A stretch of 40,280 bases of DNA from NCBI GenBank assembly GCA_048941015.1, contig JBHLNZ010000027.1:3334-43613 (forward strand). The letters are read 5' to 3'. This stretch comes from Promethearchaeota archaeon. Its GTDB lineage: Archaea > Asgardarchaeota > Lokiarchaeia > Sigyniarchaeales > SOKP01. A model generated the notes under the pieces. It worked only from the letters and a program-made list of their open reading frames with translations. It did not search any database and was not told where the DNA came from. Made by a program: the position numbers and the translations under genes. Shown here piece after piece: positions 124 to 26,851 of the stretch (its first letter is position 1; each line of letters opens with the position of its first letter).

Positions 124-269
124 AATTCTGAAGTTTATATAATCTGAAACAACAATCTCCTAATTAATTAATTCTGTTAAGGGTATTAGTCATTTTTTTT
201 ATAAGATATAAAAAGAAGCTTTTTGATTATTATCGCTTTCTTTAGACTAAAAGGTTATAGTGAAATAAT

Positions 270-773: not shown

Positions 774-824
774 TTATGAATCTATCAGTATAATCTAAAT
801 TTTTGTTTTTCCTTTATAAAAAAA

Positions 825-865
825 TATTCGTGAAACAAGTCTTTCACGAATAATTTTCGTGAAAA
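825..865. repeat. Three alternating TTCGTGAAA boxes forming overlapping inverted repeats between convergent genes
   Basis: TATTCGTGAAA-caagtc-TTTCACGAATA (825-852) overlaps TTTCACGAA-taatt-TTCGTGAAA (842-864). Confidence 0.7.
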
Positions 866-883
866 CGGAAATTTTTCTATACT

Positions 884-1981: not shown

Positions 1982-2093
1982 AACGGATTTTTTAATTTAA
2001 TGATACAAAATCATTTGAAGTATTAAAGTAATAATTCTGCTAGAAAACTTAAACTATAATTCAAATATTATTGAATTTTAATAACATTAAAAA

Positions 2094-2125
2094 GATTTCA
2101 TGAAATCTCATTTATGAGCGATAAA
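2094..2125 (+). repeat. Intergenic repeat family R2, copy 1
   Basis: GATTTCATGAAATCTCATTTATGAGCGATAAA, near-identical to 3609-3642. Confidence 0.65.
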
Positions 2126-2251
2126 AGAATTACTGTGTTTATAACAAAATATTCCCACTTATATTTTTGACTAAAAAAATTTTTAAACTTAAGTTTGAAT
2201 ATTAGGTTTATAAGATCATTGTTTCCATAAAAAGTATAGAGGTGCTTAATA

Positions 2252-3115: not shown

Positions 3116-3347
3116 ATAATTTTAATCCCAACTCATTATTATAACCGATAAAATAAAAAAGAAGGACTTTTTGCATAATATAGTCCAAATTATTTAAAGC
3201 GATAGGATTTTATAATATTGAATTCATACTTTTTTTATAAAAAGCATTTTTTCATTTTTGATTCCGTTTTAAGGGCAATGATTAGTTGTTCTAAGACGAA
3301 AATTCTAATATATTGTTGTTATATAGATATTTATTTACAGTTTCAAT

Positions 3348-4661: not shown

Positions 4662-4693
4662 AGCTTTAGATAAACTTTTAATTAGGTGAACTA

Positions 4694-4768
4694 TCATACA
4701 CCTTTCGGAGCATCGTCATCTACATCTTCAAACTCATCTAATTCCTTTTGATCATGAAAATAACAACA
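4694..4768 (-). pseudogene. Start-less 3' remnant paralogous to the microprotein at 6840-7001
   Basis: Translates as CCYFHDQKELDEFEDVDDDAPKGV*, versus CCYFHDQKELNEFDDIDDDNPKDL* at 6840-7001. Confidence 0.65.
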
Positions 4769-4781
4769 CTCAACAACAGAT

Positions 4782-6719: not shown

Positions 6720-6839
6720 TGGATTTAATTTCTAACTTATTTAAAGTTAAATAAAAAGAAGGAAAATTTCTTTAAATAAATTTTTAAGAAATATACATTC
6801 TTGCCTTTAAAATCTTAATTTTGATTTCAAATTTAATTA

Positions 6840-7001
6840 CTATAAGTCTTTTGGGTTATCATCATCTATGTCATCAAATTCATTTAATTCTTTTTGATCA
6901 TGAAAATAACAACACCCGTTTGAAATGTGGTAGTCATCTTCCTCAGCAATTTCCTGAGGATCATCCCCATTTTCAATTAAAATTTTTTTCCATCGTTTCA
7001 T
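6840..7001 (-). CDS. 53-aa acidic microprotein or truncated gene (below ORF-track cutoff)
   Basis: MKRWKKILIENGDDPQEIAEEDDYHISNGCCYFHDQKELNEFDDIDDDNPKDL*; C-terminus conserved at protein level in the copy at 4694-4768. Confidence 0.5.
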   Translation of the reverse strand: MKRWKKILIENGDDPQEIAEEDDYHISNGCCYFHDQKELNEFDDIDDDNPKDL

Positions 7002-10614: not shown

Positions 10615-10662
10615 AATTTCCATAGAATTTTCATGGAAATCAGACTCTAAATTTACCTTTTC
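10615..10662 (+). repeat. Dispersed intergenic repeat R1, copy A
   Basis: AATTTCCATAGAATTTTCATGGAAATCAGACTCTAAATTTACCTTTTC. Confidence 0.85.
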
Positions 10663-10676
10663 TAAAAATAAATTTT

Positions 10677-11342
10677 TTAATAAAGAAAGGGTAATAATCT
10701 TTTAGTTTTCCTTTTATATTCTTCAAATTCTTGGCCAAACTTCGCTAGTAAAATTCTTTCTTCTTCTATAATACGCATTCTATAAATCAAGAAAGTATAG
10801 ATAAACATTATAATAAGAGTAATAATACATCTAAAAATTAAGCAGAATCCAATCGTAGCAATTAAACCACCGGAATACATGGGATTTCGAATATATTTAT
10901 ATACACCCTGAGTAAAGAGTTGATGATCCTCTTCGGTACTTAACTCCGCAGTTCCAAATCGCCCTAAATGTGCTCGTGAGACAAGTGTAAGTATAGCTCC
11001 GATAAGATAAAAAATAAATCCTAAATAACTAATAATAATATTATCCCATATAGGAAGTATTTGGGATATGAGCAGTGTATTTTCAAGATAGGCTCCTATT
11101 AAGAAGAACGGAGAAAGTAAAAGCATCGTTAATATTAAGATATCGTATATTTTTGAGGCGCTTTTCTCTTCTGGAAGAGAACGAATCAACGTATCTGCAA
11201 GGGTGAACATATATGCAGTAAGTAAATAAATAACATAAATAGGAATTGAGTATACTTCTGGTACAAGAATAATGTAGAATATGTTCTGATAAATGAGGTA
11301 AACAAAAATGAAAAGTAAAAGCTTCTTTATAAGATCTTTCAT
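10677..11342 (-). CDS. Isoprenylcysteine carboxyl methyltransferase (ICMT/Ste14) family protein
   Basis: 'HQLFTQGVYKYIRNPMYSG', 'EEERILLAKFGQEFEEY', multi-TM. Confidence 0.9.
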   Translation of the reverse strand: MKDLIKKLLLFIFVYLIYQNIFYIILVPEVYSIPIYVIYLLTAYMFTLADTLIRSLPEEKSASKIYDILILTMLLLSPFFLIGAYLENTLLISQILPIWDNIIISYLGFIFYLIGAILTLVSRAHLGRFGTAELSTEEDHQLFTQGVYKYIRNPMYSGGLIATIGFCLIFRCIITLIIMFIYTFLIYRMRIIEEERILLAKFGQEFEEYKRKTKRLLPFLY

Positions 11343-11456
11343 TTTAATATTATATCTTTTTTAATTATTTATATTAATTTTATATATAAATATTTTTAAT
11401 GTCCCTACCATTTGAAATTTTATAAATGCTTTTAAGAATGTTTCTAGTGTGAAATC

Positions 11457-13193
11457 ATGCGTTTAATAATGAAACTTGGTTACCTTTTTGCACCTTTTAT
11501 TAGATTAGGTAATTTAGTTAAAAGAACTGTATCATCCTACATTAGCAGATTACGCGCATTAAAATCATCTAATACTACCTTCAAACTGGGTTCATGGAAT
11601 AATAATGCTCTTATCCAAACTAAGTATGGTTTGATATCTGGTTTTTCAGATAAAAATTGTTGGTGTTGGAAGGGAATTCCCTATGCAAATCCTCCGGTAG
11701 GTCCACTTCGTTGGAAAGCACCAAGTGATCCAACACCTTGGATTGGAACTCGTAAAACAAAAAAGTTTGGGAACTCTGCAGCACAAGTAATGCCTATAAT
11801 AGGGCCAACTGGTTCAGAGGATTGCCTTTACCTCAACATTTGGCGTCCTAAAACACCAGAGGTAAAATTACCAGTTTATCTATACATCCATGGAGGGGGG
11901 AACTCAATCGGAACATCTGCAGATAGATCTTATTATGGTAATGCGGTTGTTGAGAAGTCTAACTTGTTGTATATCTCAGTTAATTACCGTCTTGGAGCAA
12001 TGGGTTGGTTTATACATCCTGCAGTAACAAATACTGGTTCTCCTGAAGATAAAAGTGGGAATTTTGGCACTCTTGATCTAATAAAAGCCTTAGAATGGGT
12101 AAGAGCCAATATTGAAGCATTTGGTGGCGATCCTGATAATATTACGATCGCGGGTGAATCTGGCGGGGCTTTTAATGTTCTCTCACTCCTAATATCTTCT
12201 GCTGCAAAAGGATTATTCCATCGTGCTATCGCTGAAAGTGGAATGTCTTTTATTTGGAGTACTAAAACTGCTGAAGCTCAAAGTATCAATCTTCTGATAG
12301 CACTCCTCATTAAAGATCGTAGAGCTAAGAATCAAGAAGAAGCTCGCCAAATTATCGATCAAATGTCGGAAAAAGAAGTTAATGATTACTTTCATTCAAA
12401 ATCTGCGTTTAAGATAATTAAAAGTATCCCTACTATAGATTTTGGAATGGCAGATTGGCGAGCTATTTTTACCGATGGTACTGTAATACCAAAAGAAGGA
12501 TATACAATTTTTTCAACTGGAGAGTGGGCAAATAAAGTACCATTAATTATTGGTTGTACTAAGGACGAATTGAAGCTTTTTGGTTATTTTAGAAAAGATC
12601 CCCCCCATAGGACAAGAGAATATGACTTGATTTGGGGTTATCGTTCCCTACTCTGGCGTGTGAGTGGTCTTGATTCTTTAGTATGTCAAATGACTTTGAA
12701 TTCTAATATACCTATTTATGCGTATCGATTCGATTGGGGAAGTCCAGATAATCAGGGTATGAGTGTTCTTCCGAAAAAAATGGGAAGAGATTTGGGTGCT
12801 CACCATGCTGCAGAAATTCCTTTCTTTTTAGGAACGGGTATGGGTAGTATATCTCTGATTTTAGGAAAAACCCACACTAAGCGTAATCGAATTGGTCGGG
12901 AGAAATTAACAGATTTATGTATGAGTTATCTTGCTAATTTTGCGCGAACAGGAAATCCAAACCGAGAAAGTATACCTCATTGGTCACCTTGGGATAATAC
13001 TGAAGGAAAAAACAAGATTCTTGTCCTTGACGCTGGATTTGAAGACTTGAGACTTTCATACATAAAGGATATAATCACTCTTCAAGGTGTTCTGGATCTC
13101 ATCAATTTTGAACTCAAAGAACCTGAACTAGGGAGGATACTAACGATTCTTGATGAGATGATGCCCTTTGGAGTAAATAAACATGAGGGATGA
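11457..13193 (+). CDS. Type-B carboxylesterase/lipase
   Basis: 'KGIPYA.PPVGPLRWKAP', 'SEDCLYLNIW', 'HGGG', 'GESGG' nucleophile, 'AHHAAEIPF'. Confidence 0.93.
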   Translation: MRLIMKLGYLFAPFIRLGNLVKRTVSSYISRLRALKSSNTTFKLGSWNNNALIQTKYGLISGFSDKNCWCWKGIPYANPPVGPLRWKAPSDPTPWIGTRKTKKFGNSAAQVMPIIGPTGSEDCLYLNIWRPKTPEVKLPVYLYIHGGGNSIGTSADRSYYGNAVVEKSNLLYISVNYRLGAMGWFIHPAVTNTGSPEDKSGNFGTLDLIKALEWVRANIEAFGGDPDNITIAGESGGAFNVLSLLISSAAKGLFHRAIAESGMSFIWSTKTAEAQSINLLIALLIKDRRAKNQEEARQIIDQMSEKEVNDYFHSKSAFKIIKSIPTIDFGMADWRAIFTDGTVIPKEGYTIFSTGEWANKVPLIIGCTKDELKLFGYFRKDPPHRTREYDLIWGYRSLLWRVSGLDSLVCQMTLNSNIPIYAYRFDWGSPDNQGMSVLPKKMGRDLGAHHAAEIPFFLGTGMGSISLILGKTHTKRNRIGREKLTDLCMSYLANFARTGNPNRESIPHWSPWDNTEGKNKILVLDAGFEDLRLSYIKDIITLQGVLDLINFELKEPELGRILTILDEMMPFGVNKHEG

Positions 13194-13300
13194 ATAAAGC
13201 AGCTAATTTTTTCAAATTCAACCTGACTCAGAAATAAATATTCGTTTCACTAAAGTATAAAGCTATTTATTACACATTTTGGTTCTAATGGTTATTATAA

Positions 13301-13492
13301 TTATTTTGATGATAACAACATTATTATTAATCCAACTAACACAAGAATTAATCCTAAACTTATAGCAATAATAACTGTGATTATCCTCAAATCAAGAGCC
13401 CAGTGACTATAACCCCAATATACAATACCACCAATAAGGAAGATCAACCCTAAGACTAAAATGCCTAAACCAATTATTTTACGATTTTCTAT
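13301..13492 (-). CDS. Small two-TM membrane protein (~63 aa), apparently with a non-canonical (ATA/ATT) start
   Basis: (M)ENRKIIGLGILVLGLIFLIGGIVYWGYSHWALDLRIITVIIAISLGLILVLVGLIIMLLSSK*; no ATG/GTG/TTG between the upstream in-frame stop and TM1. Confidence 0.55.
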   Translation of the reverse strand: MENRKIIGLGILVLGLIFLIGGIVYWGYSHWALDLRIITVIIAISLGLILVLVGLIIMLLSSK

Positions 13493-13591
13493 ATTCCTTC
13501 CATGTTTACTTAAAATAATACTTCTTACTCGTATTTATAATTTTTTATTAGTCTTCTGAACTATAATTACGATTTAAGATTATTTTTTGCG

Positions 13592-13642
13592 TTTAAATAG
13601 AATTTTTATGGAAATCAGACGCTGAATTTACCATTACATCCA
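13592..13642 (+). repeat. Dispersed intergenic repeat R1, copy B
   Basis: TTTAAATAGAATTTTTATGGAAATCAGACGCTGAATTTACCATTACATCCA. Confidence 0.85.
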
Positions 13643-13846
13643 TATAAGAAAAAATGTGAAACTAAATTCTTCGCACACGGAAATACTCCTTTCGCCTTCT
13701 TCTTAAATCTCCGCTCAAGATACTTCTCCACAAATTATATATATTCAAGTGTCTTTTATGTTGATCAACACATTCTTTCCAAAAATCTAAAAATATATCA
13801 TTAGAATTGCTTAGTAATCAAATTTTTAAAATAAGGAGGAGTTAAT

Positions 13847-14206
13847 ATGGAAAAGATAAATAAAATACAAGTAAGTGCCAATATAAAGATTCCAGAGGGT
13901 AAACTAGAAGAATTTAAGCAACTAGCGATCGAGTGTATGAAACAGACAAGAGATAAAGATAAAGGAACGCTTAGATATGACTGGTTTATTAGCAGAGACC
14001 AGACTGAGTGCGAAGTTCGTGAAGAATATAAAAACTCAGAGACTTTCATAGAACATATGGTTAATCTTGGCCAAATTCTAACAAAACTTTTTAATGAATT
14101 TCCCATGGATCGTTTGGCGGTGTATGGTGACCTTTCAACACAGCTTCAAGAAATGATTAAGAGATCAGAACCAAAATTATATTCTTTCTTTCAGGGACTT
14201 GAGTAA
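13847..14206 (+). CDS. Antibiotic biosynthesis monooxygenase (ABM)/putative quinol monooxygenase family protein
   Basis: 'IKIPEGKLEEFK', 'GTLRYDWF', 'EEYKNSETFIEH'; SD AGGAGG. Confidence 0.85.
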   Translation: MEKINKIQVSANIKIPEGKLEEFKQLAIECMKQTRDKDKGTLRYDWFISRDQTECEVREEYKNSETFIEHMVNLGQILTKLFNEFPMDRLAVYGDLSTQLQEMIKRSEPKLYSFFQGLE

Positions 14207-14317
14207 GGTTTTATATGAGAACGTTTTAAATTTTTTTAGACTTTCTTTAATTTTATTAGATAGGCGCAATCGTGAAGGATTTTCCTCATTCTTATTTTTT
14301 TATTAATTATCTGTTTT

Positions 14318-14386
14318 ATTTCAAAGGAATTCTCATTGAAATCAGACGCTGAATTTACCTTTTCATTCAAATTCGTATGAAAATTT
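14318..14386 (+). repeat. Dispersed intergenic repeat R1, copy C
   Basis: ATTTCAAAGGAATTCTCATTGAAATCAGACGCTGAATTTACCTTTTCATTCAAATTCGTATGAAAATTT. Confidence 0.9.
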
Positions 14387-14460
14387 ATTGATTTTATTTC
14401 AAAAATTCTTTCTTGATGAATATGGTGGACTTTTTTTTCATATTTTTATCAATCCTTTTT

Positions 14461-15297
14461 TCAAAATTTTATAGATTCTAATCTTAAATATTGGTCATAA
14501 ACTTGCTGAGGATCGCCAGCGAACATCTTTTTGAATTGTGGTTTTAATATTAAATTAATTAATCCCGCGATAATGCTCTTAAAGATTCCTATTCTAGTGT
14601 CGTAATAATATTGCTTATCATCTTCCAGCCATCCTTGTTCAAACCAATATTTATAATCGGCATTAGTTTCATCTATTGCTATCTTATGTAGTGCTTTTCT
14701 TATTTTAAATCCAAGAACAACTCCTAAACTTGGTTTTTGATACCTTTTCCCGTTTAATGCCTTGATGAATATTTTACATGCAGTCTTTATTTTCTTTATT
14801 ATCTTTTTTTCTGCTCCTCCAATGGGTATTGTCCGTACCTCTAATCGGTGGACGAAATTAAATCCCCAAGAATTAGCTACTTGATTGAAATACTTTGTTA
14901 TCTTCTTTGCATCTGCGATACCTTCATTACACACACCTATAGCAATTTTTCCGAAAAAACAAGGTCTATGAAAAATATATGCAAACCTGTCAAAAAAATT
15001 TTTCATGAGTGCAGGAACATGCAAGGCATAAGCAGGAGCCATGAAAATTACACCATCCGCTTGATTAATTTTGTCAAAAATATTATTCCGATCGTCATTT
15101 CCTACCGGGCACTTATCTTCCCCTTTAAAAAAGCAATTTAAACACCCTCTACATGATTCTAGATTAACATCTTTAAGATATAAGTATTCAAATTCAACTT
15201 CCTGAAGCAATTTTAATTCAAATTCCAACTTTTCCATGATTATGGTTCCATATCCTTTTCTAGGACCACCCATTATCGTTAAGACTTTCATCTTCAA
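14461..15297 (-). CDS. Flavodoxin-like / NADPH-dependent FMN reductase (iron-sulfur flavoprotein-like)
   Basis: 'GGPRKG', CxxCxxCx6C 'CRGCLNCFFKGEDKC', 'APAY', 'MKNFFDR'. Confidence 0.88.
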   Translation of the reverse strand: MKMKVLTIMGGPRKGYGTIIMEKLEFELKLLQEVEFEYLYLKDVNLESCRGCLNCFFKGEDKCPVGNDDRNNIFDKINQADGVIFMAPAYALHVPALMKNFFDRFAYIFHRPCFFGKIAIGVCNEGIADAKKITKYFNQVANSWGFNFVHRLEVRTIPIGGAEKKIIKKIKTACKIFIKALNGKRYQKPSLGVVLGFKIRKALHKIAIDETNADYKYWFEQGWLEDDKQYYYDTRIGIFKSIIAGLINLILKPQFKKMFAGDPQQVYDQYLRLESIKF

Positions 15298-15610
15298 TTC
15301 GTTATATTATTTTATTGAGGATTTTAACCTAACCTGAACTATACTTTTTCAAATTCAAATTTGATTAAGACTGTTTCAAAGGTTAAGCAAACTTCCCGTT
15401 GATTAATATAATATAATAAATTTTCATATTTAAACTTGTTGGATCTACATAGTCTTTGTCAATTCAACATAGTCACAAATATTAATTCTTGGAAAAGAGA
15501 GCCTTTATTCGATTGAAGAACATTTCTTGAGGGTTTTTTTTTAAGAAAGCTTTTAATTCAATGAGATTTAAATGTAGAATATTGTTTGACAAAATGAGGA
15601 ATTTTATGCG

Positions 15611-15847
15611 ATGTTTCAAATAGAAGAAGCACCCACTGGCACCACTAAATGTGATTGGTGTGGAGAGCTTATTAAAAAAAGCACACTTAGGCTTAGATTT
15701 GCCCCACAAAAAGGTTATAATTATTATTGGCATCAAGATTGTGGGATAAAATATTTGGAAGGTCTAAAAATTTTGCTACAAAATGGCGAAAAAGGTCATA
15801 TTGGTCGAGCAGAAGCAGATAAAGCTCGCAAAGATGCGGGGTTATAA
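15611..15847 (+). CDS. Stand-alone PARP-type zinc finger protein
   Basis: 'IEEAPTGTTKCDWCGELIKKSTLRL...WHQDC' fits the CxxC...HxxC zf-PARP pattern. Confidence 0.7.
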   Translation: MFQIEEAPTGTTKCDWCGELIKKSTLRLRFAPQKGYNYYWHQDCGIKYLEGLKILLQNGEKGHIGRAEADKARKDAGL

Positions 15848-15920
15848 ATTAGTGGCTTTGCCAGTTTTACAATAAACAAAATTTTGATAAAATTCGAATG
15901 AAATCAAAAGGAGAAATAAA

Positions 15921-16955
15921 ATGAGTGGTGTGAATCTGATTATTAAAAATATTAAGGAAGAAATTACAAACCCAAAACCATCCAGTAATCGCATTATAAC
16001 CTATTTACATGATTTACGGACTAAAGAAGAGTATCAATCGCTTTCTAATGTAGAATTTTATGATATTGTAGGAGAGACTTTCAAATTAAATCCTGAGTAT
16101 TTTATGAAACGTATTTATGGAAAATATTTTCATAATAGGGAAATGGAAAAATATATTATTAGAAAATTTTGCTTGTATGATGGAGAACAAATAATCTATG
16201 AATGTGATGGGAGTATAAGACAAAGAAATCAGGATAATGTAAAAGTATCAGTACTTGGAAGAATTTATATAACTAATTATAGAATCATTGCTCAAGGTAC
16301 GCTTTCAGTAAGCGGAGGACGATTAAGTGGGGGTGGAAATTTATTGGATTTGGTAATACCCCTTATGACAGGACGCCGTAAAAGGACTAAAAGCAAGAAA
16401 GGGCTTATTGAAGGTTCTACATATCAGGAATTACCCTGTTATGGATATCAGTTCCCAATTAGAAATCATGTAAAATTGAAGAAAAAAGGCGATGGGATAA
16501 GATATATTGTGACTCCTCAACTCTTCTTTAAGTTGAGGAATGTGTTTAAAGTAATTCAAATATCACTCGGATATCCATTAGAAGATAAAATAAACAAACT
16601 CTTTCAAGTATTATCTAAGGATGTGAATCAAATTATAGATTCATTTAGAGAATTACATGAAATGGGATTAAATCGAAGATCTAAAAAGAAAGAATTTATA
16701 TATAGATTACGCCAATTATGGAAAAGTGAAGAGTATCAGCAACTTTTTGATTCAAATTATTTAGATGTTGTAATAAGAGTGTATGAATTAGATCCTGAGT
16801 TTTTTATGACTTCAATTTATCCAAAAATGATGTCCTGGAAATTTCCATCATTTGTAAGAGTGAAAGAAGAAATAATATCACTTATTGATAAGTTAAACAG
16901 CGAATTTGTTCCTTCTAAACCAGAAACAGACGAAAACAACGATTTAGATGATTAA
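15921..16955 (+). CDS. Hypothetical protein: central PH/GRAM-like domain flanked by a duplicated helical module
   Basis: 'LYDGEQIIYEC...GRIYITNYRII'; internal repeat EEYQSL...LNPEYFMKRIY / EEYQQL...LDPEFFMTSIY. Confidence 0.6.
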   Translation: MSGVNLIIKNIKEEITNPKPSSNRIITYLHDLRTKEEYQSLSNVEFYDIVGETFKLNPEYFMKRIYGKYFHNREMEKYIIRKFCLYDGEQIIYECDGSIRQRNQDNVKVSVLGRIYITNYRIIAQGTLSVSGGRLSGGGNLLDLVIPLMTGRRKRTKSKKGLIEGSTYQELPCYGYQFPIRNHVKLKKKGDGIRYIVTPQLFFKLRNVFKVIQISLGYPLEDKINKLFQVLSKDVNQIIDSFRELHEMGLNRRSKKKEFIYRLRQLWKSEEYQQLFDSNYLDVVIRVYELDPEFFMTSIYPKMMSWKFPSFVRVKEEIISLIDKLNSEFVPSKPETDENNDLDD

Positions 16956-17123
16956 TAATTCATAAATTAGAAACTCAGATACTATATTTTTTCTTTTAAT
17001 TGTTAAGGGGATCAGACAGAGTTTACCTATATTTTGACCGATCATGGGTTCCAAATTATTGAGATTATGTAATTCATTTTAGGCTTTCATCTTTAATTGT
17101 GAGAAAAACTATTTTTTCTCTCA

Positions 17124-17192
17124 TTTTTTCACTAAATTTTCATTGAACTTGGACGCTGAATTTACTTTTCCAACTTAATTTCAAAGGAAATT
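17124..17192 (+). repeat. Dispersed intergenic repeat R1, copy D
   Basis: TTTTTTCACTAAATTTTCATTGAACTTGGACGCTGAATTTACTTTTCCAACTTAATTTCAAAGGAAATT. Confidence 0.85.
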
Positions 17193-17224
17193 TACTTTTG
17201 TGTTTAAATAGATTTAAATATAAA

Positions 17225-17280
17225 ATTGATCATATTGATCATATTGATCATATTGATCATAATGATCACAATTAGATCAA
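17225..17280 (+). promoter_or_regulatory. 9-bp tandem repeat (ATTGATCAT x4 plus 2 degenerate units); probable operator of the adjacent RHH gene
   Basis: Perfect units at 17225, 17234, 17243 and 17252, then AATGATCAC and AATTAGATCAA; ends 6 nt before the RHH ORF. Confidence 0.7.
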
Positions 17281-17286
17281 TATTAA

Positions 17287-17670
17287 GTGTTTAAAATGAA
17301 GGATGAAAAAAAAGAGAAATTTATTAAAGTCATGGTATCCGAAAAGCTATACAAAAAAATAGACAGATATTCACACTTACAACTACAAACTAAGTCCGAA
17401 TTTATTAGATCTGCAGTAAGGAAAAGGATTGCTGAAATTGATAAATCAATCTATCCTAACAAAACAGATCCACAGTTTAAAAAGAATAATGTTCTTAGAC
17501 ACGATATCCTGAAAGAACTAAAAACCTCGCAATCCGCTCACGAGAAAGGAGCATTTCTAAAGAAACCAAGTGAGCAAGAACTCAAAGAACGAGAAAAATT
17601 GCTTCAAAAACGGAAGAGGGAATTAGAAAAGGAATTAAATAACATAGAAAATGCATTAACAAAACAATAA
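17287..17670 (+). CDS. Ribbon-helix-helix (CopG/MetJ/Arc-like) protein with C-terminal coiled coil
   Basis: 'FIKVMVSEKLYKKIDRYS...TKSEFIRSAVRKRI' is an RHH signature; alternative ATG at 17296. Confidence 0.8.
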   Translation: MFKMKDEKKEKFIKVMVSEKLYKKIDRYSHLQLQTKSEFIRSAVRKRIAEIDKSIYPNKTDPQFKKNNVLRHDILKELKTSQSAHEKGAFLKKPSEQELKEREKLLQKRKRELEKELNNIENALTKQ

Positions 17671-17803
17671 TCAATTTAATTTATCAGATATTTATATTGA
17701 ACCTTGAACTCGTCTTTCGAGTACTACACACTCGCGTTGTTAAGGAAATGAAATATCAAATAATTTACTAAACCTAATCCTTATCTTTCTTTTCTATTTC
17801 GTG

Positions 17804-17871
17804 TTTTCAATGGAATTTTCATTGAAATCAGACGCTGAATTTACCTTTCCTATCCAATTTCACAGAAAATT
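17804..17871 (+). repeat. Dispersed intergenic repeat R1, copy E (closest to consensus)
   Basis: TTTTCAATGGAATTTTCATTGAAATCAGACGCTGAATTTACCTTTCCTATCCAATTTCACAGAAAATT. Confidence 0.9.
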
Positions 17872-17977
17872 GGGACAATATTTAAAAAGATTCGAACTTA
17901 GAATTTATTAAGACGGAGAAATATACAGGATTAACTTTAAAATAGTAATATAAACCAAGGCAAATTACATAATTTTA

Positions 17978-19264
17978 ATGAAAATTGAACTATTAAATCC
18001 TATAGGTTTTGAAAGATTATCACGTGAATTTCAGAGTTATATAGATGATAATAAAACTGGCTGCATTCTATGTGCAATTTATCATCAAAATAAACTTGTG
18101 TATTGTAATAAATTTGGTTGGAAAGATAAATTCAATCAGATTCCAATTGCTTTTGATGATATCTTCCGAATATATTCGATGACAAAACCAATTACTTGTT
18201 TGGCTGCATTAATTCTTTATGAACAGGATAAATTTGATTTAGATGATCCACTTGAAAATTATCTTCCAGAGTTTAAAAATCTCAAAGTATTGAAATCTTA
18301 TGATGAGGAAACTGGTGAAACAGAATTAAAGGATACTGAAAATCCGATCACTATTAAACAGCTTTTTACTCATACATCTGGGCTTAGTTATGGTGATGAT
18401 CCAGAAGAAGTCCCAGTTGATAAGCTGTATGGAGAAGAATTTGGCTTTACTGGTGAAAATAGGTTAAAATCAAAACTAGAGATGTTCCCCATAATGCCAC
18501 CGTTAGAAGAATTTAGCAAACGTTTAGCAACTCTTCCACTTGTTTTCGAACCAGGAACCCATTGGTGGTATGCTTTTAGTCATGAAATTTTGGGCTATTT
18601 AATAGAAAAACTATCAGGAAAGAAATTAGATGTGTTTTGTAGAGAGGAGCTTTTTGATAAATTGGGTATGAATGATACTGATTTTTATGTTCCCAAAGAA
18701 AAATGGAAAAGATTAACAAAAGTATACACTAAAGATCAAACTGGCAAACTAATCGAAGTAGAAGGGGATATTTATGAAGGATTCAAACATAAAATCCAGT
18801 ACCTATCAGGTGGAGGGGGCCTTGTATCCACTTTAAAAGATTACATGAAATTTTGCTTAATGATGCTAAATGGAGGGAGATATCAAGACATACAAATTGT
18901 ATCTAAGGATATAATCAAACTGATGACAACCAATCAATTACCGAATAATAAAAATTTTCTAGATATGCAATATATAAAATATGAAGATTCTGAATCAATA
19001 AAAAGAAACGAAGGATATGGTTTTGGATTGGGTGTAATGGTGAAAATAGCCGAAAATATGTCAAGAAGTGGAATTGGAGATTTTAGTTGGGGCGGAGCTT
19101 TTAATACATTCTTTGAAGTAGATCCTGCGAATCAAGTAATTTCAATAGTTTTAACACAATATTGTCCAGAAGACAGTGATTGGATATTTCCTATTGATTG
19201 GGTCAGAATAGGCAATTTGGTTTACGAGGCATTAGAAAAAACAAGTAAAAGCAAGATAACATGA
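17978..19264 (+). CDS. Serine hydrolase, beta-lactamase class C/esterase family
   Basis: 'FRIYSMTK' (SxxK), 'LFTHTSG', 'FEPGTHWWY', 'GGGGLVST', 'FSWGG'. Confidence 0.92.
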   Translation: MKIELLNPIGFERLSREFQSYIDDNKTGCILCAIYHQNKLVYCNKFGWKDKFNQIPIAFDDIFRIYSMTKPITCLAALILYEQDKFDLDDPLENYLPEFKNLKVLKSYDEETGETELKDTENPITIKQLFTHTSGLSYGDDPEEVPVDKLYGEEFGFTGENRLKSKLEMFPIMPPLEEFSKRLATLPLVFEPGTHWWYAFSHEILGYLIEKLSGKKLDVFCREELFDKLGMNDTDFYVPKEKWKRLTKVYTKDQTGKLIEVEGDIYEGFKHKIQYLSGGGGLVSTLKDYMKFCLMMLNGGRYQDIQIVSKDIIKLMTTNQLPNNKNFLDMQYIKYEDSESIKRNEGYGFGLGVMVKIAENMSRSGIGDFSWGGAFNTFFEVDPANQVISIVLTQYCPEDSDWIFPIDWVRIGNLVYEALEKTSKSKIT

Positions 19265-19291
19265 AACAGAACGGATGAGGAAATTATTTCA

Positions 19292-19347
19292 TTTTTTCAA
19301 TAAAATTTTCATTGAAATCAGATCCTGAATTTACCTTTTCTGAAATT
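19292..19347 (+). repeat. Dispersed intergenic repeat R1, copy F
   Basis: TTTTTTCAATAAAATTTTCATTGAAATCAGATCCTGAATTTACCTTTTCTGAAATT. Confidence 0.88.
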
Positions 19348-19558
19348 TAATTTAATAAATAGATGGTAATAATTATATTCCAATTTACTGAATTGATTAG
19401 TTGATTGATCAGTTTTTTTATTTGAAAGTAAAAAAATAATTATTTTTATTATTCAATTTTTGGTGATTTTTCTTCTAGAGGTTGAACTTGGAATTAAATG
19501 AAATTGAATTCCTTAATTTTATTAACTTTAATCAAATAATAGTAAGGAGTTTGAAACT

Positions 19559-19801
19559 ATGCAAGTAATGAAAATGTTGAAAAAAATAATCTTTTTTACT
19601 ATAGCAATAGCTTTGTTATTAAGTGGATTCACATTAAGTATTATGACAATCCTTCCAGACACTGCGAGTAAACCTTGTCTATTAGGTTATTATGCTCATT
19701 GTTCTTTTGCGCCAATAAGCTCAATTATTCTCTTCACTTTCGGACTTTTAGGATTATTTCTTTTAATAAAGCTCGTGAAATCAGGTAAAAAAAATAAATA
19801 A
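19559..19801 (+). CDS. Small two-TM membrane protein with a Cys/His loop
   Basis: Two hydrophobic helices around 'ASKPCLLGYYAHCSFAP'; SD AGGAG. Confidence 0.7.
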   Translation: MQVMKMLKKIIFFTIAIALLLSGFTLSIMTILPDTASKPCLLGYYAHCSFAPISSIILFTFGLLGLFLLIKLVKSGKKNK

Positions 19802-19880
19802 AGTAATTTCAAATTTAACCAAAAAGAAATTATAAATTCTTAATCTATAAATATTTTTTTTTCTTCTTTTTAAACTATAT

Positions 19881-20801
19881 ATGGATGCAATCGACTTAAA
19901 AATAATTCAGATATTGATTATTAATTCAAGGTTGTCCTATAGAGAACTTGCGAGTCATTTAGACATAACTCTAAATGCAGTTTATAAAAGAGTTCAAAAA
20001 CTTATCGATTTAGGCGTCATTCGATGGTTTACTTCAAAAATTAATGCCTATGCAATTGGTGCATTTTATGCCTTTATTTTCGGCAAGAGTGATGCTCATA
20101 ATATAGACAAAGTCATGTTAGAGCTACAAAAGAATGAGAATACTACTCATCTTGTACTTACAAGTAGAAATTATTTATATATTGGCGCTTTTCTAAGAAA
20201 TGTTCATGGACTCGGAGATTATAGTTCTTTCATTTCTAATACTGCAGAAATTAAATCACCCATAGTTGGATTACGTGATGGCTCTTATCATTCTTCTCCA
20301 GTAGATCTTATCTATCCTAAATCCAATGTATTAAACATTGATAAATTAGATCTATCTATCATTCGAATGCTCCAAAAGGACTCCAGAAAACCAATCTCAG
20401 AAATTGCTGATGATCTTGGTAGTACTCCTAATACTATTCGCCGAAGATTATCACGTTTAATAAATGAGGGTATAGTTGAATTTACCCTTGATTTTCATCT
20501 TGAGGCTTCTGATAACCTATATTCCATTTTAATAATAGATTTAAAACCATCTACAGATAGAATTCAAATTGCAAAGATTTTAAGCAATAAATACCAACCT
20601 TTTATTATATTTTGTTGGACTTTTAGTAATCTGCCAAATAAACTCGTTTGCTTTGTTTGGAGTAGTACAATAAAAGAGCTCAATGATCTCTTAGAGAATA
20701 TTAAAAGTGAAGAAATAGATTCAGTTGTTACTGACATCATCAGAAAAGCTTTGTTTCTAGACACATGGTTGGACGAGTTGGTACATAAAAAAGAAATATA
20801 A
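19881..20801 (+). CDS. Lrp/AsnC family regulator with duplicated HTH+RAM units
   Basis: 'MDAIDLKIIQIL..NSRLSYRELA' and a second unit 'DKLDLSIIRMLQKDSRKPISEIA'. Confidence 0.9.
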   Translation: MDAIDLKIIQILIINSRLSYRELASHLDITLNAVYKRVQKLIDLGVIRWFTSKINAYAIGAFYAFIFGKSDAHNIDKVMLELQKNENTTHLVLTSRNYLYIGAFLRNVHGLGDYSSFISNTAEIKSPIVGLRDGSYHSSPVDLIYPKSNVLNIDKLDLSIIRMLQKDSRKPISEIADDLGSTPNTIRRRLSRLINEGIVEFTLDFHLEASDNLYSILIIDLKPSTDRIQIAKILSNKYQPFIIFCWTFSNLPNKLVCFVWSSTIKELNDLLENIKSEEIDSVVTDIIRKALFLDTWLDELVHKKEI

Positions 20802-20926
20802 TTTCTATTCGAGAATTTATATTTATGTTACTCGCAAAAAAATAACGATTTTTGAGTAATCTTTCTTTTTAAAGATAATAAAAAAAGAAAAAAAAATGTA
20901 ATTCCTTTTTAGTAATCTGTTTAACA

Positions 20927-21640
20927 TTAGAAAAGTAATCCTAATCGTAAATAGCCCCATAAAATGTGCCAGAATAAATAATAAACTAATCGAAATAAAT
21001 ACATGGTAAAGAAATCGTAGCGTTTAAAAATAAATAATTGGAGGAAATTGAACAGGTATAAATGAAATCCAAAAAAGATTACAATCCATAAAGGAAAATC
21101 AGAAGGAGTACCAAAAATCATCTGAAAAACCGGCTCTAATAATGAAACGATGAAAATACTTATCCATATAATCTTCTTTTGCTTTACATTTTTAAAAACC
21201 GATGTAAGAACAATTAAGAGAAGAGAAAGGGGGACTAAATGAAATAAAATTTCAACAACAAAACCCATTGTTGGATAGAATAACAAAGAATAAGGAAATA
21301 AAACGTTAATGTTCTCAGGATATACAAAATTTATATCAATAAGGATCGGAGTCATTACTAATAAAGAAGCTGGAATAGAAATAATCGCTATTCCTCTTAG
21401 ATTTCGCTTGTAAATATTGAACCAACTATAAGAAATGCCAACAGAAAATAGAACAAAAGCTAAAATGATAATAATAAATATCATCAATAGGGGATTAATA
21501 TCTCCAAAATACCTTCGAAATGAGAGAGGATTTGTTAAACATAGAATTATGCTGAATCCAATTATCAAAAAAGATAAGATAAGAAAAAATGTATACTGAA
21601 TCCGTTCCCTTGATATGATTTTTTTTAATTCAGTTATCAA
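20927..21640 (-). CDS. Multi-pass membrane protein (possibly divergent CPBP-like)
   Basis: About 7 TM helices; 'VEILFH' and 'YYLFWH' motifs. Confidence 0.7.
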   Translation of the reverse strand: MITELKKIISRERIQYTFFLILSFLIIGFSIILCLTNPLSFRRYFGDINPLLMIFIIIILAFVLFSVGISYSWFNIYKRNLRGIAIISIPASLLVMTPILIDINFVYPENINVLFPYSLLFYPTMGFVVEILFHLVPLSLLLIVLTSVFKNVKQKKIIWISIFIVSLLEPVFQMIFGTPSDFPLWIVIFFGFHLYLFNFLQLFIFKRYDFFTMYLFRLVYYLFWHILWGYLRLGLLF

Positions 21641-21946
21641 TTTTTATGACCAAAATATATAATTTTATTTAATTTCAAAAAGAATTCATCAGCATATAAC
21701 TCTAAGTTTAACTCTAAGTAGAAAAACACATAATTCAAACATAAAAAAAGAATACATTTTTGATTAATTGATAAAAAAATGAATCATTAAGTTTATCAAT
21801 TTTATTTCCTAATTGCTGTAATCATTAAGATAGAGGGACTATAATAATGTGGTTTTTGCTTGTATTTTAAACTTAGTTTTAAATCTAGGCCTCAATTTCT
21901 CTTATTTAACAAAATGATTACCTAAATAAAAATAACAAAATGAAGT

Positions 21947-22759
21947 GTGAATAAATTGAATATTAATTCTGAAAGTTCTGAAATTAAAAATAGTCCACAA
22001 AGAAGATTAACAAGGTTTTTTGGTCTGCTTTTGTTGATTTCAATACCAATCTGGATAATATCGGCTTTAACAAAACAATTTATTCCTGAAGGATTGCCAA
22101 TAAATCACATTGGTTTTATATTGGTATTTGCTCCAGCAATAGTAGCCTTTATTCTTAACTACAGAGACTACGGAAAAGAAACGGCAAAAAAACTATTAAA
22201 AAGGGCATTTGACTATAAGCGAATTGAACACAAGATTTGGTATCTACCAATCTTATTTCTATTACCAATTATGTCTTTCTTAACATTAGGATTAATAATA
22301 ATCTTAGGGATGCAATTTAATGAAAACTCAATAACCTTTGAAATATTGCCCTTATTGTTCATAGTTTTTATAATTTTTGCTATAGGGGAAGAAGTTGGAT
22401 GGCAGGGATATGTTTTTGATGCAATGCAAACTAAGTGGAAAAATCTGAACTCTGCAATAATTTTAGGCATAATTTGGCCGATTTGGCATATCCCATTGTT
22501 TATCATTCAAGAGCCTCCTGCTGGTTTAATATGGATTTTAAGTCAATGCTTATACATGGTAGTTCTACGGGTTCTAATCGTTTGGATATTCAATAATACA
22601 AACAGAAGCATTTTTGGAGCGATATTGATTCATGCTATATCTAATCTATGTACAATGATACTGCCGATATATAGCATACCGTTAGCAACATTGATCACTA
22701 GTCTGATGATAATTATTACTCTGATTATAGGTATATCCTTGAAGAAAATTAAAAAGTAG
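21947..22759 (+). CDS. CPBP (CAAX/Abi) family intramembrane metalloprotease
   Basis: 'GEEVGWQGY', 'WPIWHIP', 'AILIHAISN'. Confidence 0.92.
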   Translation: MNKLNINSESSEIKNSPQRRLTRFFGLLLLISIPIWIISALTKQFIPEGLPINHIGFILVFAPAIVAFILNYRDYGKETAKKLLKRAFDYKRIEHKIWYLPILFLLPIMSFLTLGLIIILGMQFNENSITFEILPLLFIVFIIFAIGEEVGWQGYVFDAMQTKWKNLNSAIILGIIWPIWHIPLFIIQEPPAGLIWILSQCLYMVVLRVLIVWIFNNTNRSIFGAILIHAISNLCTMILPIYSIPLATLITSLMIIITLIIGISLKKIKK

Positions 22760-22768
22760 TTCTAATAT

Positions 22769-22836
22769 ATTTCACAGGAATTTTCATTGAAACCTGATTC
22801 TGAATTTGCCTTTCCATTCCAATTTCAAAGGAAATT
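22769..22836 (+). repeat. Dispersed intergenic repeat R1, copy G
   Basis: ATTTCACAGGAATTTTCATTGAAACCTGATTCTGAATTTGCCTTTCCATTCCAATTTCAAAGGAAATT. Confidence 0.85.
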
Positions 22837-23043: not shown

Positions 23044-24132
23044 TTGGATGAGATCAGATTGAAATCAAATCGAAAAATAAAAATATTACTTCTAATAATT
23101 TTAGGAATCTTTTGTGCTTTCTCACCAATAATAACCACTAATCTCAATTCAGAATTTAGCACTGGTGTTGACTTAGATAAGGAAAATGTAAAAATCTCAA
23201 AAGTATGGGGAAAAGTTCACATTGATGATGCTAATCCAAGTATGAACTGGTCTGTCGCCAAAAACGATGAAATATGTACGGGAAATGGCACTTATTCTGA
23301 TCCTTATGTTATTGAAGATTTAGTAATAAATGGCGGCGGTTCAGGAGATTGTATTTTAATAGAAAATTCTAATGTATACTTTAGGATTGAAAATTGTACG
23401 GTCTACAATTCAGAGATTTACACTGATATTGAAAACTGGTGGTATAACTTGTGGAACCATTTTGCAGGAATCCGATTATCGAATGTAAACAATTCTTTAT
23501 TAATTGATAATGATTGTTACTCTAACAATGATGGGATACATGTAGACGGTTTTAATAACACCATTTCTGGAAATACTGCAAATAACAATATTAATGGGTC
23601 TGGGATATCTGTAGGGGGTTATAATAACATAGTTGCGGGAAACACTGCAAATAACAATGATTTTCCTGGGATATTGTTAAGTGGGTATAATTCTACTGTT
23701 TCAGGAAATATTGCAATGAATAATAGTTGGGCAGGTATTGGGATTGCGTTAATGAGTGGTTTCTATAACAATGTTTCGGGAAATACCGCAGCTATACAAT
23801 TATTTTATAGCGATTATAACACTATTTCGGGAAATACTGGAGTTGGAATAGCCTTGCTTGCTAGTAATTATAACACTATTTCAAGAAATACTGCAAGTTG
23901 GAGGATAATTTTAGATGATAGTGATTATAATATCGTTTCTGGGAATGATGCCTGTTGGGAAGAACGTGGTGACTGTGAAGGAAACGTATTTAGTGACAAT
24001 AATGGGCCTTGTCCTAAAGGAGATGATTTTCCAGTCGAACTGATTGTTTTAATTTCGGTTATTAGCGGAGGAGCAGTGATAGGGATAGCAGCCTTCCTAT
24101 TAATTAGACGTAAAAGGAAAAGAATAGAATAA
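23044..24132 (+). CDS. Secreted right-handed beta-helix (NosD/PbH1) protein with C-terminal TM anchor
   Basis: Signal peptide, 'GNGTYSDPYVIE', repeated 'NNTISGNTANNN', TM plus RRKRK tail. Confidence 0.88.
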   Translation: MDEIRLKSNRKIKILLLIILGIFCAFSPIITTNLNSEFSTGVDLDKENVKISKVWGKVHIDDANPSMNWSVAKNDEICTGNGTYSDPYVIEDLVINGGGSGDCILIENSNVYFRIENCTVYNSEIYTDIENWWYNLWNHFAGIRLSNVNNSLLIDNDCYSNNDGIHVDGFNNTISGNTANNNINGSGISVGGYNNIVAGNTANNNDFPGILLSGYNSTVSGNIAMNNSWAGIGIALMSGFYNNVSGNTAAIQLFYSDYNTISGNTGVGIALLASNYNTISRNTASWRIILDDSDYNIVSGNDACWEERGDCEGNVFSDNNGPCPKGDDFPVELIVLISVISGGAVIGIAAFLLIRRKRKRIE

Positions 24133-26450: not shown

Positions 26451-26647
26451 AATCGTTCAAATTAGTAATTTGTTTAAAGTCCTTTTCCATCTTAAAGAAA
26501 AGTAAAAGAATCTATAAAAAAAATGGAGTCCAATTTTTAATCATAAAAGAATTAAATCTAATATTCTTAAACAGTAAAATTTAAGAATTTTAATAGATTC
26601 TTTCTATTTATAAAAATAGTAATTAAAAGTAAAGGAGCTGATAAAAA

Positions 26648-26851
26648 ATTCCTGGTTCGCACGGTTCACTTACGAAAGCTGGTAAGGTAAAAATGCAAAC
26701 ACCTAAAATCGAAAAAACAGGTGTAAATTCAGAAAAGAAGAGGCCTCCAAGAATGCGATATAGAAAATTATACCTTCAAAGAATTGAAAAAGGGAGGTAT
26801 GGAGGTCAAAAAGAGTCTCTTGGTGCTAAAAGAGCTCAATTTTCCCGTTAG
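26648..26851 (+). CDS. rps30e: 30S ribosomal protein eS30 (S30e), apparent ATT start
   Basis: (M)PGSHGSLTKAGKVKMQTPKIEK...PPRMRYRKLY is the eS30 signature; SD-like GGAGCTGA at 26634-26641; in-frame TAA two codons upstream. Confidence 0.92.
   Translation: MPGSHGSLTKAGKVKMQTPKIEKTGVNSEKKRPPRMRYRKLYLQRIEKGRYGGQKESLGAKRAQFSR

Follow-up and report, generated by a model that had tools for sequence, protein, structure and literature searches.

The window, the whole 40,280-nt stretch of Lokiarchaeial DNA that was analysed, contains a series of accessory genes separated by seven direct plus-strand copies of a single repeat family. In the repeat search the copies start at 10617, 13592, 14319, 17126, 17805, 19295 and 22770. 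Together with the genes between them, assigned by Pfam except where another basis is given, they form the following array:

10616–10663, +: core copy A, candidate 47–48 nt junction site with its anchor G at 10636 (repeat search, alignment and pattern match)
10664–13590: cassette 1, PEMT/ICMT-like methyltransferase (10677–11342, −) and carboxylesterase (11457–13193, +)
13591–13638, +: core copy B (repeat search and pattern match)
13639–14317: cassette 2, ABM monooxygenase (13847–14206, +)
14318–14365, +: core copy C (repeat search and pattern match)
14366–17124: cassette 3, FMN reductase (14461–15297, −), small zinc-finger-like ORF (15611–15847, +), 344-aa protein of no assigned family (15921–16955, +) and degenerate partial core (17011–17029; from the sequence)
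17125–17172, +: core copy D, the most diverged (repeat search and alignment)
17173–17803: cassette 4, 9-bp tandem repeat (17212–17281) and small putative RHH/coiled-coil protein (17287–17670, +)
17804–17851, +: core copy E (repeat search), followed by an optional hairpin module to about 17885
17852–19293: cassette 5, beta-lactamase-family serine hydrolase (17978–19264, +)
19294–19341, +: core copy F (repeat search and pattern match)
19342–22768: cassette 6, small membrane protein (19559–19801), double Lrp/AsnC-type HTH regulator (19881–20801), membrane protein (20927–21640, −) and CPBP/Rce1-like protease (21947–22759)
22769–22816, +: core copy G, the final copy of the array, followed by an optional hairpin module (repeat search and pattern match)
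23044–24132, +: beta-helix (NosD-like) protein gene directly past copy G

An initial annotation of this DNA had described at least seven co-oriented intergenic copies at these positions, and the repeat search agrees. All seven copies are intergenic, and a search with a 22-nt core pattern, allowing at most 3 mismatches, gives 6 matches in the window, all on the plus strand, against 0.02 expected from shuffles; copy D lies outside these six. Pfam likewise bears out the description of the intervals as holding one to four unrelated genes on either strand, and on inspection of the sequence the reported partial copy at 17011–17029 is present as a degenerate remnant. The tRNA-Trp gene placed beside the array was not confirmed: ARAGORN with and without introns, Rfam at the gathering threshold and Rfam at E ≤ 5–10 all find no tRNA gene in the window. 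A plus-strand gene precedes each of the seven copies, and rightward of 22816 the window has no further copy. The 3.59-Mb host genome carries 11 copies, 7 of them within 12 kb. For the cassette 4 protein, Pfam gives just a sub-threshold CdvA coiled-coil match, and the RHH fold is a putative reading of its sequence. The window also contains a pair of duplicated host sequences, at 4689–4769 and 6835–6915.

The conserved unit is a polar core of 47–48 nt that extends from −20 to +27, counted from the G of GAAATCAGA; conservation stops sharply at both positions, the sequence is nearly invariant across genera and the dyads are internal, not terminal. A third box, AATTTC..GAAATT, which had been counted as part of the repeat, does exist, though as an optional module in ~27% of copies and outside the conserved unit. 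The compensatory hairpin change reported for copy A turned out to be an isolated case: in a set of 296 distinct copies, breaks in the first dyad are frequent, with three positions unpaired in 40–60% of copies, double changes are rare and compensatory changes absent, the core shows no covariation, and G-U single changes do not clearly outnumber A-C ones. Without covariation the core is therefore not a structured RNA; an Rfam search gave no match to the repeat, and we found no published description of it in the literature. The absence of attC cores, already claimed in the initial annotation, was confirmed, as the trinucleotide GTT is missing from both strands of the 47-nt consensus and of the optional module, which makes a GTTRRRY box impossible.

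The motif occurs in 102 of the 154 genomes of the order, all of them in family f1 of the Promethearchaeia (Lokiarchaeia), where about three quarters of the genomes carry it; a reversed control pattern gave zero matches. In the large set of 524 copies at 303 loci, pairs of neighbours share an orientation in a ratio of 211:2 and lie a median of ~1.1 kb apart, and the corresponding ratios are 98:1 in a smaller set and 47:0 on metagenome contigs alone. Copies are spaced 0.4–3.4 kb apart with genes between them, and a single ORF occupies 64 of 98 intervals. The copies are thus clustered as attC sites in CALINs are (two or more sites in one orientation, spaced by less than 4 kb, with short ORFs between them), and the random genome-wide scatter that had been named as evidence against a cassette system does not apply. 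Genomes carry several arrays each, and one hotspot, directly past the rps13-rps4-rps11 operon, is shared by at least seven genomes. On the closed chromosome of G060, the orientation flips between arrays 50–130 kb apart and does not follow the replichores. Repeat copies are frequent at contig ends.

The strand of the genes is independent of that of the repeat. In single-gene cassettes, the gene lies on the repeat strand in 35 cases and on the opposite strand in 29, with a gap of 106–126 nt on its 5' side, and most cassettes appear to consist of one gene, on either strand, with its own promoter. Family-wide, the gene upstream of a repeat is on the strand of the repeat in 90 of 154 cases, gene pairs flanking a repeat are convergent in 49 cases versus divergent in 28, and at 1.21 Mb of G060 a whole array has its repeats antisense to every gene. 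The commonest gene family adjoining the repeat in other genomes is the NosD-like beta-helix, with 41 members at 35 loci and a median distance of 51 nt.

Across genomes, the same packets of genes turn up between repeats beside differing neighbours. The esterase gene of cassette 1 also lies between two repeats in G111, G102 and G049, each time beside other genes, and the esterase cassettes of G049 (genus g12) and G111 (g1) share 92.5% identity. G049 and G141 have a three-gene luciferase-like cassette in common at 91% identity, and an AOR cassette is 88–91% identical in G141, G076 and G088, its neighbours differing each time. A 93% identical copy of cassette 4 sits between two repeats of G134:C59, and the cassette recurs in G078, which belongs to another genus. 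Matches to two segments of cassette 3 lie on separate contigs (FMN reductase, 91% identical, in G132:C40; zinc finger, 96%, in G136:C142), and homologues of the window's cassettes are dispersed over different contigs in congeners. Two observations count against a junction role of the repeat: some homologues in relatives have no detectable flanking repeats (e.g. G132:C40 and G104:C10), and gene order relative to G132 also differs in one repeat-free part of the window. The genes delimited by the site encode hydrolases, oxidoreductases, acetyltransferases, regulators and surface proteins, with ~90% identity between genera, and most cassettes consist of one metabolic gene of ~1 kb without a trace of element backbones. 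Whereas the core synteny around xerA is only 70–75% identical when the window's genome is compared with four g12 genomes and one g1 genome, shared cassettes are 88–95% identical across lineages; cassettes being far more alike than core DNA, horizontal transfer is indicated.

The junctions were compared in 21 cassette families that occur in a different context on both sides (an earlier version used 10). For the upstream site, resemblance to the counterpart begins no earlier than +25 (0.63 vs 0.47, P = 0.001); for the downstream site it extends no further than about −11 (0.69 vs 0.58, P = 0.01), and the left flank of the downstream site gives 0.52 vs 0.34. The similarity of shared cassettes therefore ends within the core on both sides. 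The crossover would lie somewhere between core positions −10 and +24; a hint of a crossover at the 3' edge of the core, seen with 10 families, was not reproduced with 21. The flanks to the left and right of the element assort independently.

From these observations we conclude, with a probability of roughly 0.6, that the repeat serves as a junction site in double-stranded DNA, where self-contained cassettes of accessory genes are cut out, inserted and reshuffled within the chromosomal arrays of this one family. Cassettes would be exchanged when two cores recombine: deletion between direct copies would yield a circle with one core, and recombination of this circle with any chromosomal core would insert it between two direct cores, a topology that would explain the co-orientation of the copies. 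A site-recognising protein acting in trans, a putative factor that would be encoded elsewhere, probably catalyses the reaction. On metagenome contigs there was no circular signature, and a circular cassette, an excision junction and an empty site were likewise not observed.

The initial annotation had combined non-attC cassette units with a recombinase encoded elsewhere; genome comparison supports the former, while the latter was not found. A phmmer search with XerA, which a very divergent integrase family could escape, detected no linked recombinase among 1466 ORFs or 814 further ORFs of metagenome contigs (303 loci, ~520 copies). The Y1 HUH transposase (PF01797) is absent from G000, G076, G088, G060 and G136; in the five copy-rich genomes tested, IS110 and Cas1 are absent and serine recombinases are rare. 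IntI was found neither in the array nor in the genome, where the sole common tyrosine recombinase is XerA-type and none lies near the arrays. The window's own genome and most g1 and g12 genomes have one PF00589 protein of this type (~310 aa), remote from the arrays; contigs with extra tyrosine recombinases in five genomes carry no repeat copy, and 2.9 million viral contigs gave no match to the motif. The one classical recombinase shared by nearly all these genomes is a single XerA, but the core is unlike a dif site, which has two 11-bp imperfect inverted arms and a 6-bp (4–10) spacer (PMC2958812). The best 11-bp arms with a 6–8 bp spacer in the core reach 6/11 matches, equalled by 488 of 500 shuffles. 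The XerA-type gene occurs throughout the order, and the motif in only part of one family.

The lack of a recombinase linked to or co-distributed with the motif would be natural if no dedicated enzyme existed and RadA homologous recombination at the 47 bp of identity, using DNA from relatives or sister copies, deleted, inserted and swapped genes. We regard this as unlikely, if deserving of real weight, and equally so its corollary that the motif is kept since motif-retaining cassettes go on spreading. The crossover is not localisable within −10 to +24, circle insertion by homologous recombination likewise yields co-oriented direct repeats, and the duplicated pair at 4689–4769 and 6835–6915 is in keeping with such exchange. 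However, a sharp-edged, near-identical core across genera whose core DNA is 70–75% identical is hard to explain without sequence-specific recognition, and 47 bp is short for efficient RadA-type exchange.

It is improbable that the units are decayed small integrative elements accreted in tandem, with the core as att site, the integrase lost and intact members on unbinned plasmids or viruses. Each module is indeed flanked by direct repeats, and the hotspot past the rps13-rps4-rps11 operon recurs in at least seven genomes, but no integrase lies beside any of the ~520 copies, the 2.9 million viral contigs hold no match, and modules are mostly ~1 kb single metabolic genes in which element backbones are not seen.

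More improbable still is the insertion between genes, in a preferred orientation, of a selfish MITE-, REP- or PATE-like miniature element. Both flanks change at the element instead of staying syntenic, terminal inverted repeats are absent, as are Y1/RAYT, IS110 and Cas1 from the five copy-rich genomes, and the orientation flips in G060 do not follow replichores; such an element would share with the repeat its short length, intergenic position, copy number, internal dyads and frequent location at contig ends. An RNA-level element (3'-UTR, terminator, processing signal or small structured RNA gene) is largely refuted. The plus-strand gene before 7/7 window copies and the excess of convergent over divergent pairs (49 vs 28) speak for it, but the terminator alternative of the initial annotation is opposed family-wide by the strand counts (90/154 upstream genes, 35:29 in single-gene cassettes) and by entire antisense arrays, and RNA structure by the broken first hairpin, the missing covariation and G-U excess, and the Rfam search. 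Least probable is an operator of a transcription factor for an accessory-gene regulon. The conserved double-stranded sequence with dyads and the HTH and putative RHH regulator genes in the array would fit it, but 49 copies are flanked by convergent genes and have no promoter beside them to regulate, and strict co-orientation whatever the gene strand and context switching at the site are left unexplained. A SECIS element was rejected, in-frame TGA read-through being absent, and so was a CRISPR array, given the spacing of 0.4–3.4 kb with genes, no Cas1 and no short-period arrays in the genome.

For the junction site, a more specific reading, tentative and a little short of even odds, is that a Lokiarchaeial family has its own gene-capture system, in which a 47-bp non-attC, non-dif site and a putative trans-acting recombinase or XerA stack and shuffle self-expressed single-gene cassettes at several chromosomal arrays and move metabolic genes between genera. 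No known organisms are more closely related to eukaryotes than Asgard archaea, and their ways of acquiring genes are relevant to the assembly of the eukaryotic gene set. Since about three quarters of the family's genomes carry the site and cassettes move at ~90% identity, it looks like a main route of accessory-gene flow in its lineage. Long, invariant and searchable, it offers a direct means of cataloguing the mobile gene pool and of finding the enzyme; should that enzyme prove new, it would add another type of tool for site-specific recombination. The sole cassette system so far described in Asgard archaea is the classical attC integron, in ~8% of genomes (PMC9668308).

Among known systems, REP/BIME elements with RAYT and IS200/IS605-derived PATEs are also short intergenic repeats with dyads, but the genomes tested here have no Y1 HUH transposase, structure is not conserved, and the copies bound independently assorting gene units. 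MITEs would show terminal inverted repeats, target-site duplication and syntenic insertion, whereas the dyads here are internal and the flanks assort independently. Tandem accretion and CIMEs at one att site similarly place direct att-like repeats between stacked modules, and the end of the rps11 operon is a comparable hotspot; here, however, none of the ~520 copies has an integrase-bearing member, backbones are absent and each genome has many array locations. A cognate integrase, expected beside some att repeats of CIMEs, was found neither in the 303 loci nor on the extra-recombinase or viral contigs.

In IMEX arrays at dif and in Acinetobacter pdif modules, a short site also bounds modules that encode no recombinase and the host Xer would act in trans; a host XerA-type recombinase is present in 143 of the 154 genomes. 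The Lokiarchaeial core lacks the 11-6-11 inverted-repeat architecture, though, its copies are all direct where pdif sites alternate in orientation, and XerA extends across the order, the motif over part of one family only.

Sedentary chromosomal integrons and CALINs, including archaeal ones (Ghaly et al. 2022, PMC9668308), differ in that attC sites keep a hairpin structure with variable sequence and carry R'' (RYYYAAC) and R' (GTTRRRY) boxes at their ends; the Lokiarchaeial site has neither core box, keeps its sequence instead of a folded structure, and often leaves its first dyad unpaired. Its genes occur on both strands (35:29 in single-gene cassettes, with a gap of 106–126 nt on the 5' side of the gene) and appear to carry promoters of their own, unlike the mostly promoterless, singly oriented genes of attC cassettes; IntI, attI and Pc are absent, and there are several arrays per genome in one archaeal family only. 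What the two have in common are arrays of short co-oriented sites ~0.5–3 kb apart, mostly without an adjoining integrase, with mostly one accessory gene per unit and with cassettes reordered across genomes and lineages.

A repeat search of the window, with the hits aligned, returned one family of seven direct plus-strand copies, every one of them intergenic. At up to three mismatches, a 22-nt core pattern gave six matches, all on the plus strand, against 0.02 expected from dinucleotide-preserving shuffles; copy D, which is more diverged, was picked up by a profile search. These results bear out the seven co-oriented intergenic copies of the initial annotation, and the partial copy that it had listed is present as a degenerate remnant. 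The tRNA gene that it had placed beside the array was found neither by ARAGORN, with or without introns, nor by Rfam down to E=5-10 anywhere in the window. The copies, and the mutually unrelated genes that they separate, are as follows.

Repeat copies and intervening genes in the window
Start 10617, plus strand, copy A
Start 13592, plus strand, copy B
Start 14319, plus strand, copy C
17011-17029, degenerate remnant of the repeat
Start 17126, plus strand, copy D
Start 17805, plus strand, copy E
Start 19295, plus strand, copy F
Start 22770, plus strand, copy G
15921-16955, 344-aa protein without Pfam match, cargo of cassette 3
17287-17670, small putative RHH/coiled-coil protein, without Pfam family above threshold
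Between copies, PEMT/ICMT-like methyltransferase
Between copies, carboxylesterase
Between copies, ABM monooxygenase
Between copies, FMN reductase
Between copies, small zinc-finger-like ORF
Between copies, beta-lactamase-family hydrolase
Between copies, small membrane protein
Between copies, double Lrp/AsnC regulator
Between copies, membrane protein
Between copies, CPBP protease

All copies were aligned on the G of GAAATCAGA as anchor. Information content rises abruptly at -20 and drops abruptly past +27, and these sharp edges define the unit as a core of 47-48 nt with the consensus TTTTTCAAAGGAATTTTCATTGAAATCAGAC(T/G)CTGAATTTACCTTTCCA, in which no inner position but +10 varies freely. In 118 of 440 distinct copies a second module, made up of a short hairpin and then GGGAC, adjoins the core on its 3' side; in the window this module is full after copies D, E and G and partial after C. 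The core holds two imperfect dyads (9-7-9 and 9-3-9) and no 11-6-11 arrangement, the best such arms matching at 6 of 11 positions, no better than in shuffles. Across 296 distinct copies, several positions of the first dyad are unpaired in 40-60% of copies, double compensatory changes are essentially absent from the dyads, and single changes in the second show no clear bias of G-U over A-C. The compensatory change noted earlier in copy A as a structural sign is thus no general property of the repeat, and the broken first dyad together with the lack of compensatory changes places selection on sequence rather than on a fold.

The window's own genome (3.59 Mb in 144 contigs) carries 11 copies: seven in a 12-kb stretch, two on contig C93 and one each on C58 and C88. 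A 29-nt pattern with up to three mismatches was present in 102 of the 154 genomes of the order, all of one family and chiefly of two genera (37 of 41 and 52 of 54 genomes), with 1-36 copies per positive genome; its reversed control gave no match in the 154. The copies cluster, with five within 2.5 kb on the closed chromosome of genome G060, seven on one contig of G049 (C392) and ten on one of G076 (C15). Arrays are often located at contig ends; all genomes are MAGs, and their assemblies are broken by arrays. In at least seven genomes an array begins directly downstream of the rps13-rps4-rps11 operon (loci L043, L020, L034, L059, L159, L168 and L202), which marks a conserved hotspot. The assembly of the window's genome lacks rps4 and rps11, and contig C137 begins inside rps13; the positions concerned are G000:C137:3-467 and the end of C58. 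This pattern suggests that the corresponding array broke the assembly there.

For neighbouring copies up to 6 kb apart, the first data set gave 98 co-oriented cases out of 99, metagenome contigs 47 out of 47, and all 524 anchored copies (303 loci) 211 out of 213. Their median spacing is 1.1 kb, and with ORFs called by a simple longest-ORF rule, 64 of 98 intervals contained exactly one. On the closed chromosome of G060, arrays separated by 50-130 kb point in opposite directions, so polarity is a property of the array and not of the replichore.

The same units recur between repeats in different company. The window's carboxylesterase gene lies between two repeats in G111, G102 and G049, and a 2.5-kb aldehyde:ferredoxin oxidoreductase (AOR) unit does so in G141, G076 and G088, with different neighbours each time. 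A three-gene luciferase-like unit of 3.7 kb is common to G141 and G049, between which the order of common units has changed while their orientation relative to the repeats is preserved. The putative RHH unit that separates copies D and E recurs at 93% identity on a contig of G134 (C59), there too between two repeats, and is also found in G078 of the other genus; homologues of the remaining window units are spread over numerous contigs in congeners. Identity among shared units is 88-95%, between-genus pairs included, and that of the syntenic core region around xerA only 70-75% (the window's genome against five others, four from the other genus and one from its own). By this comparison of sequence identities, the shared units appear to have moved by horizontal transfer.

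Other features of the window were recorded alongside. Directly upstream of the putative RHH gene, at 17212-17281, a 9-bp unit (TCATATTGA / ATTGATCAT) is repeated five to six times in tandem and probably forms that gene's own operator; tandem repeat and gene travel as one cassette (93% identical in G134 and present in G078). The 344-aa protein contains the motif EEYQ..L..N..D(I/V)V....(L/E).PE(Y/F)FM..IY, internally repeated at both ends. Two 81-nt direct repeats, 79% identical (4689-4769 and 6835-6915), bracket a TPR gene (4782-6719); the closest relative (G132:C128) has the TPR and DUF362 genes in exchanged positions, not inverted, and carries no 47-nt repeat close to them. The 3.1 kb at 124-3257, with an unknown ORF, a possible small-GTPase-like ORF (weak, sub-threshold Arf match), a GH16 gene and a CGTGAAA dyad, are missing from the otherwise collinear G132:C128, and thus form an indel between congeners. 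Inside a 690-nt gap of the ORF list, at about 26640-26850, we read in translation (...GSLTKAGKVKMQTPKIEK...) a short gene for a putative eS30-like ribosomal protein.

We located the change of context within the core using 21 cassette families found in at least two loci with different context on both sides; flanking sites were scored position by position against random pairs. Each family contributed a single pair; cassette pairs drawn from related genomes are only partly independent. For the site that precedes a shared cassette (upstream), similarity stayed at background across -50..+24 and rose only from +25 (0.63 versus 0.47, P=0.001). At the downstream site it was high in the left flank (0.52 versus 0.34) and in the variable 5' core part, -20..-11 (0.69 versus 0.58, P=0.01), and at background from +13 onward. 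The two flanks of each core therefore assort independently, with the switch inside the core, between about -10 and +24. An earlier analysis of 10 families had hinted that the whole core moves with the 5' cassette; the larger set backs this for -20..-11 only and did not reproduce it for 0..+24, and a crossover at the core edge is not claimed. Two truncated copies end in or beside the central palindrome (in G111 after ...GACGCTG, in G076 before ATC...), which might reflect nothing more than decay.

A repeat that is the recombination or junction site of a cassette system fits the comparative evidence, and we assign this reading a probability of roughly 60%. Two direct cores would recombine to excise a circle with one core, and recombination of the circle with any chromosomal core would insert it between two direct cores. 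Such excision and insertion would explain co-orientation, one-gene units, permutations without inversion and transfer between lineages. The main rival, itself unlikely, is exchange by the general homologous-recombination machinery with the repeats serving as short homologies; in its favour, no linked enzyme was found and the mapping narrowed the crossover no further than to about -10 to +24 of the core. Within the cassette reading, a sequence-specific trans-acting protein is favoured, since a sharply bounded 47-bp block is near-invariant across genera whose core identity is 70-75%.

No recombinase gene is encoded in the window. The only PF00589 protein of its genome is a 306-aa XerA-type enzyme on another contig, with XerA placed at C129:13903-14421, and each of five copy-rich genomes likewise has a single XerA, at a distance of tens of kb or more from the arrays. 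A XerA-type gene is present in 143 of the 154 genomes of the order, most of which have no other tyrosine recombinase; in five genomes, contigs with an extra one carry no motif copy. Searches with XerA by phmmer gave no match among 1466 ORFs from 280 loci, and none in another 814 open frames taken from 120 metagenome loci. The two motif-rich genera seldom have serine recombinases (5 of 41 and 5 of 54), which occur more often where the motif is lacking; the Y1 (IS200/RAYT), IS110 and Cas1 families are absent from five copy-rich genomes, and no viral contig carried the site. A linked recombinase was rejected once the 1466 ORFs next to the repeat had been clustered and the 20 families recurring most often scanned with Pfam, which returned cargo only: beta-helix surface proteins, alpha/beta hydrolases, esterases, TPR proteins, GNATs, luciferase-like oxidoreductases, AOR, HdrA/MvhD-like proteins, flavodoxins and transporters (ABC, MFS). 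Arrays built by tandem accretion of integrase-bearing elements are accordingly improbable, and we think it more doubtful still that the co-oriented copies are MITE/REP-like elements. The enzyme of the cassette system, if a dedicated one exists, would act in trans, with XerA the only classical candidate by elimination; the site itself is not dif-like. A chromosomal dif was also rejected: on the closed chromosome of G059 the only copy is situated halfway along the sequence (50%), yet it adjoins a hydrolase typical of the cargo and resembles a solitary cassette.

Of note, a perfect dyad, CGTGAAA-N6-TTTCACG, occurs at 829-848 (G000:C48:4162-4181). Sites of this kind number 13-14 in the window's genome, no two of them with the same 6-nt spacer; five are no more than 500 nt from a contig end, and one is 3 kb away from xerA. 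Of the 154 genomes, 137 contain the dyad, and a reversed control pattern is almost without matches. The sites represent either an operator family or a second candidate family of recombination sites.

In the window each copy has a plus-strand gene upstream, as a 3'-UTR or terminator would, but the pattern fails family-wide. When an RNA/terminator ALTERNATIVES was tested on 154 classifiable copies, the upstream gene shared the strand of the repeat in 90 and lay opposite in 64, with 49 copies between convergent and 28 between divergent genes. In 64 single-gene intervals, gene and repeat had the same strand in 35 and opposite strands in 29, and at 1.21 Mb in G060 three plus-strand repeats alternate with exclusively minus-strand genes. 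The repeat matched no Rfam family, and reading TGA as Sec, as a SECIS or selenoprotein 3'-UTR element would have it, lengthens no ORF meaningfully. Together these results reject a 3'-UTR, terminator, SECIS or structured RNA as a general explanation, and we give an RNA element very little credence. ATTGAAAT/AATCAGAC presumably resembles archaeal CRISPR repeats; a CRISPR-derived repeat was rejected, short-period arrays and Cas1 both being absent from the genome. Despite its dyads, the core is least credible of all as an operator.

We found no paper on the motif or on such arrays in Lokiarchaeia. Xer-dependent module systems are likewise without a module-borne enzyme, but the Lokiarchaeial site lacks the dif architecture (PMC2958812). 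The closest known behaviour is that of the sedentary integrons and CALINs reported in Asgard genomes from attC models (PMC9668308). In contrast to these, the Lokiarchaeial system has no IntI and its site no R''/R' boxes, the site is conserved in sequence and not in structure, and the cassette genes occur on either strand, each with an upstream region of its own.
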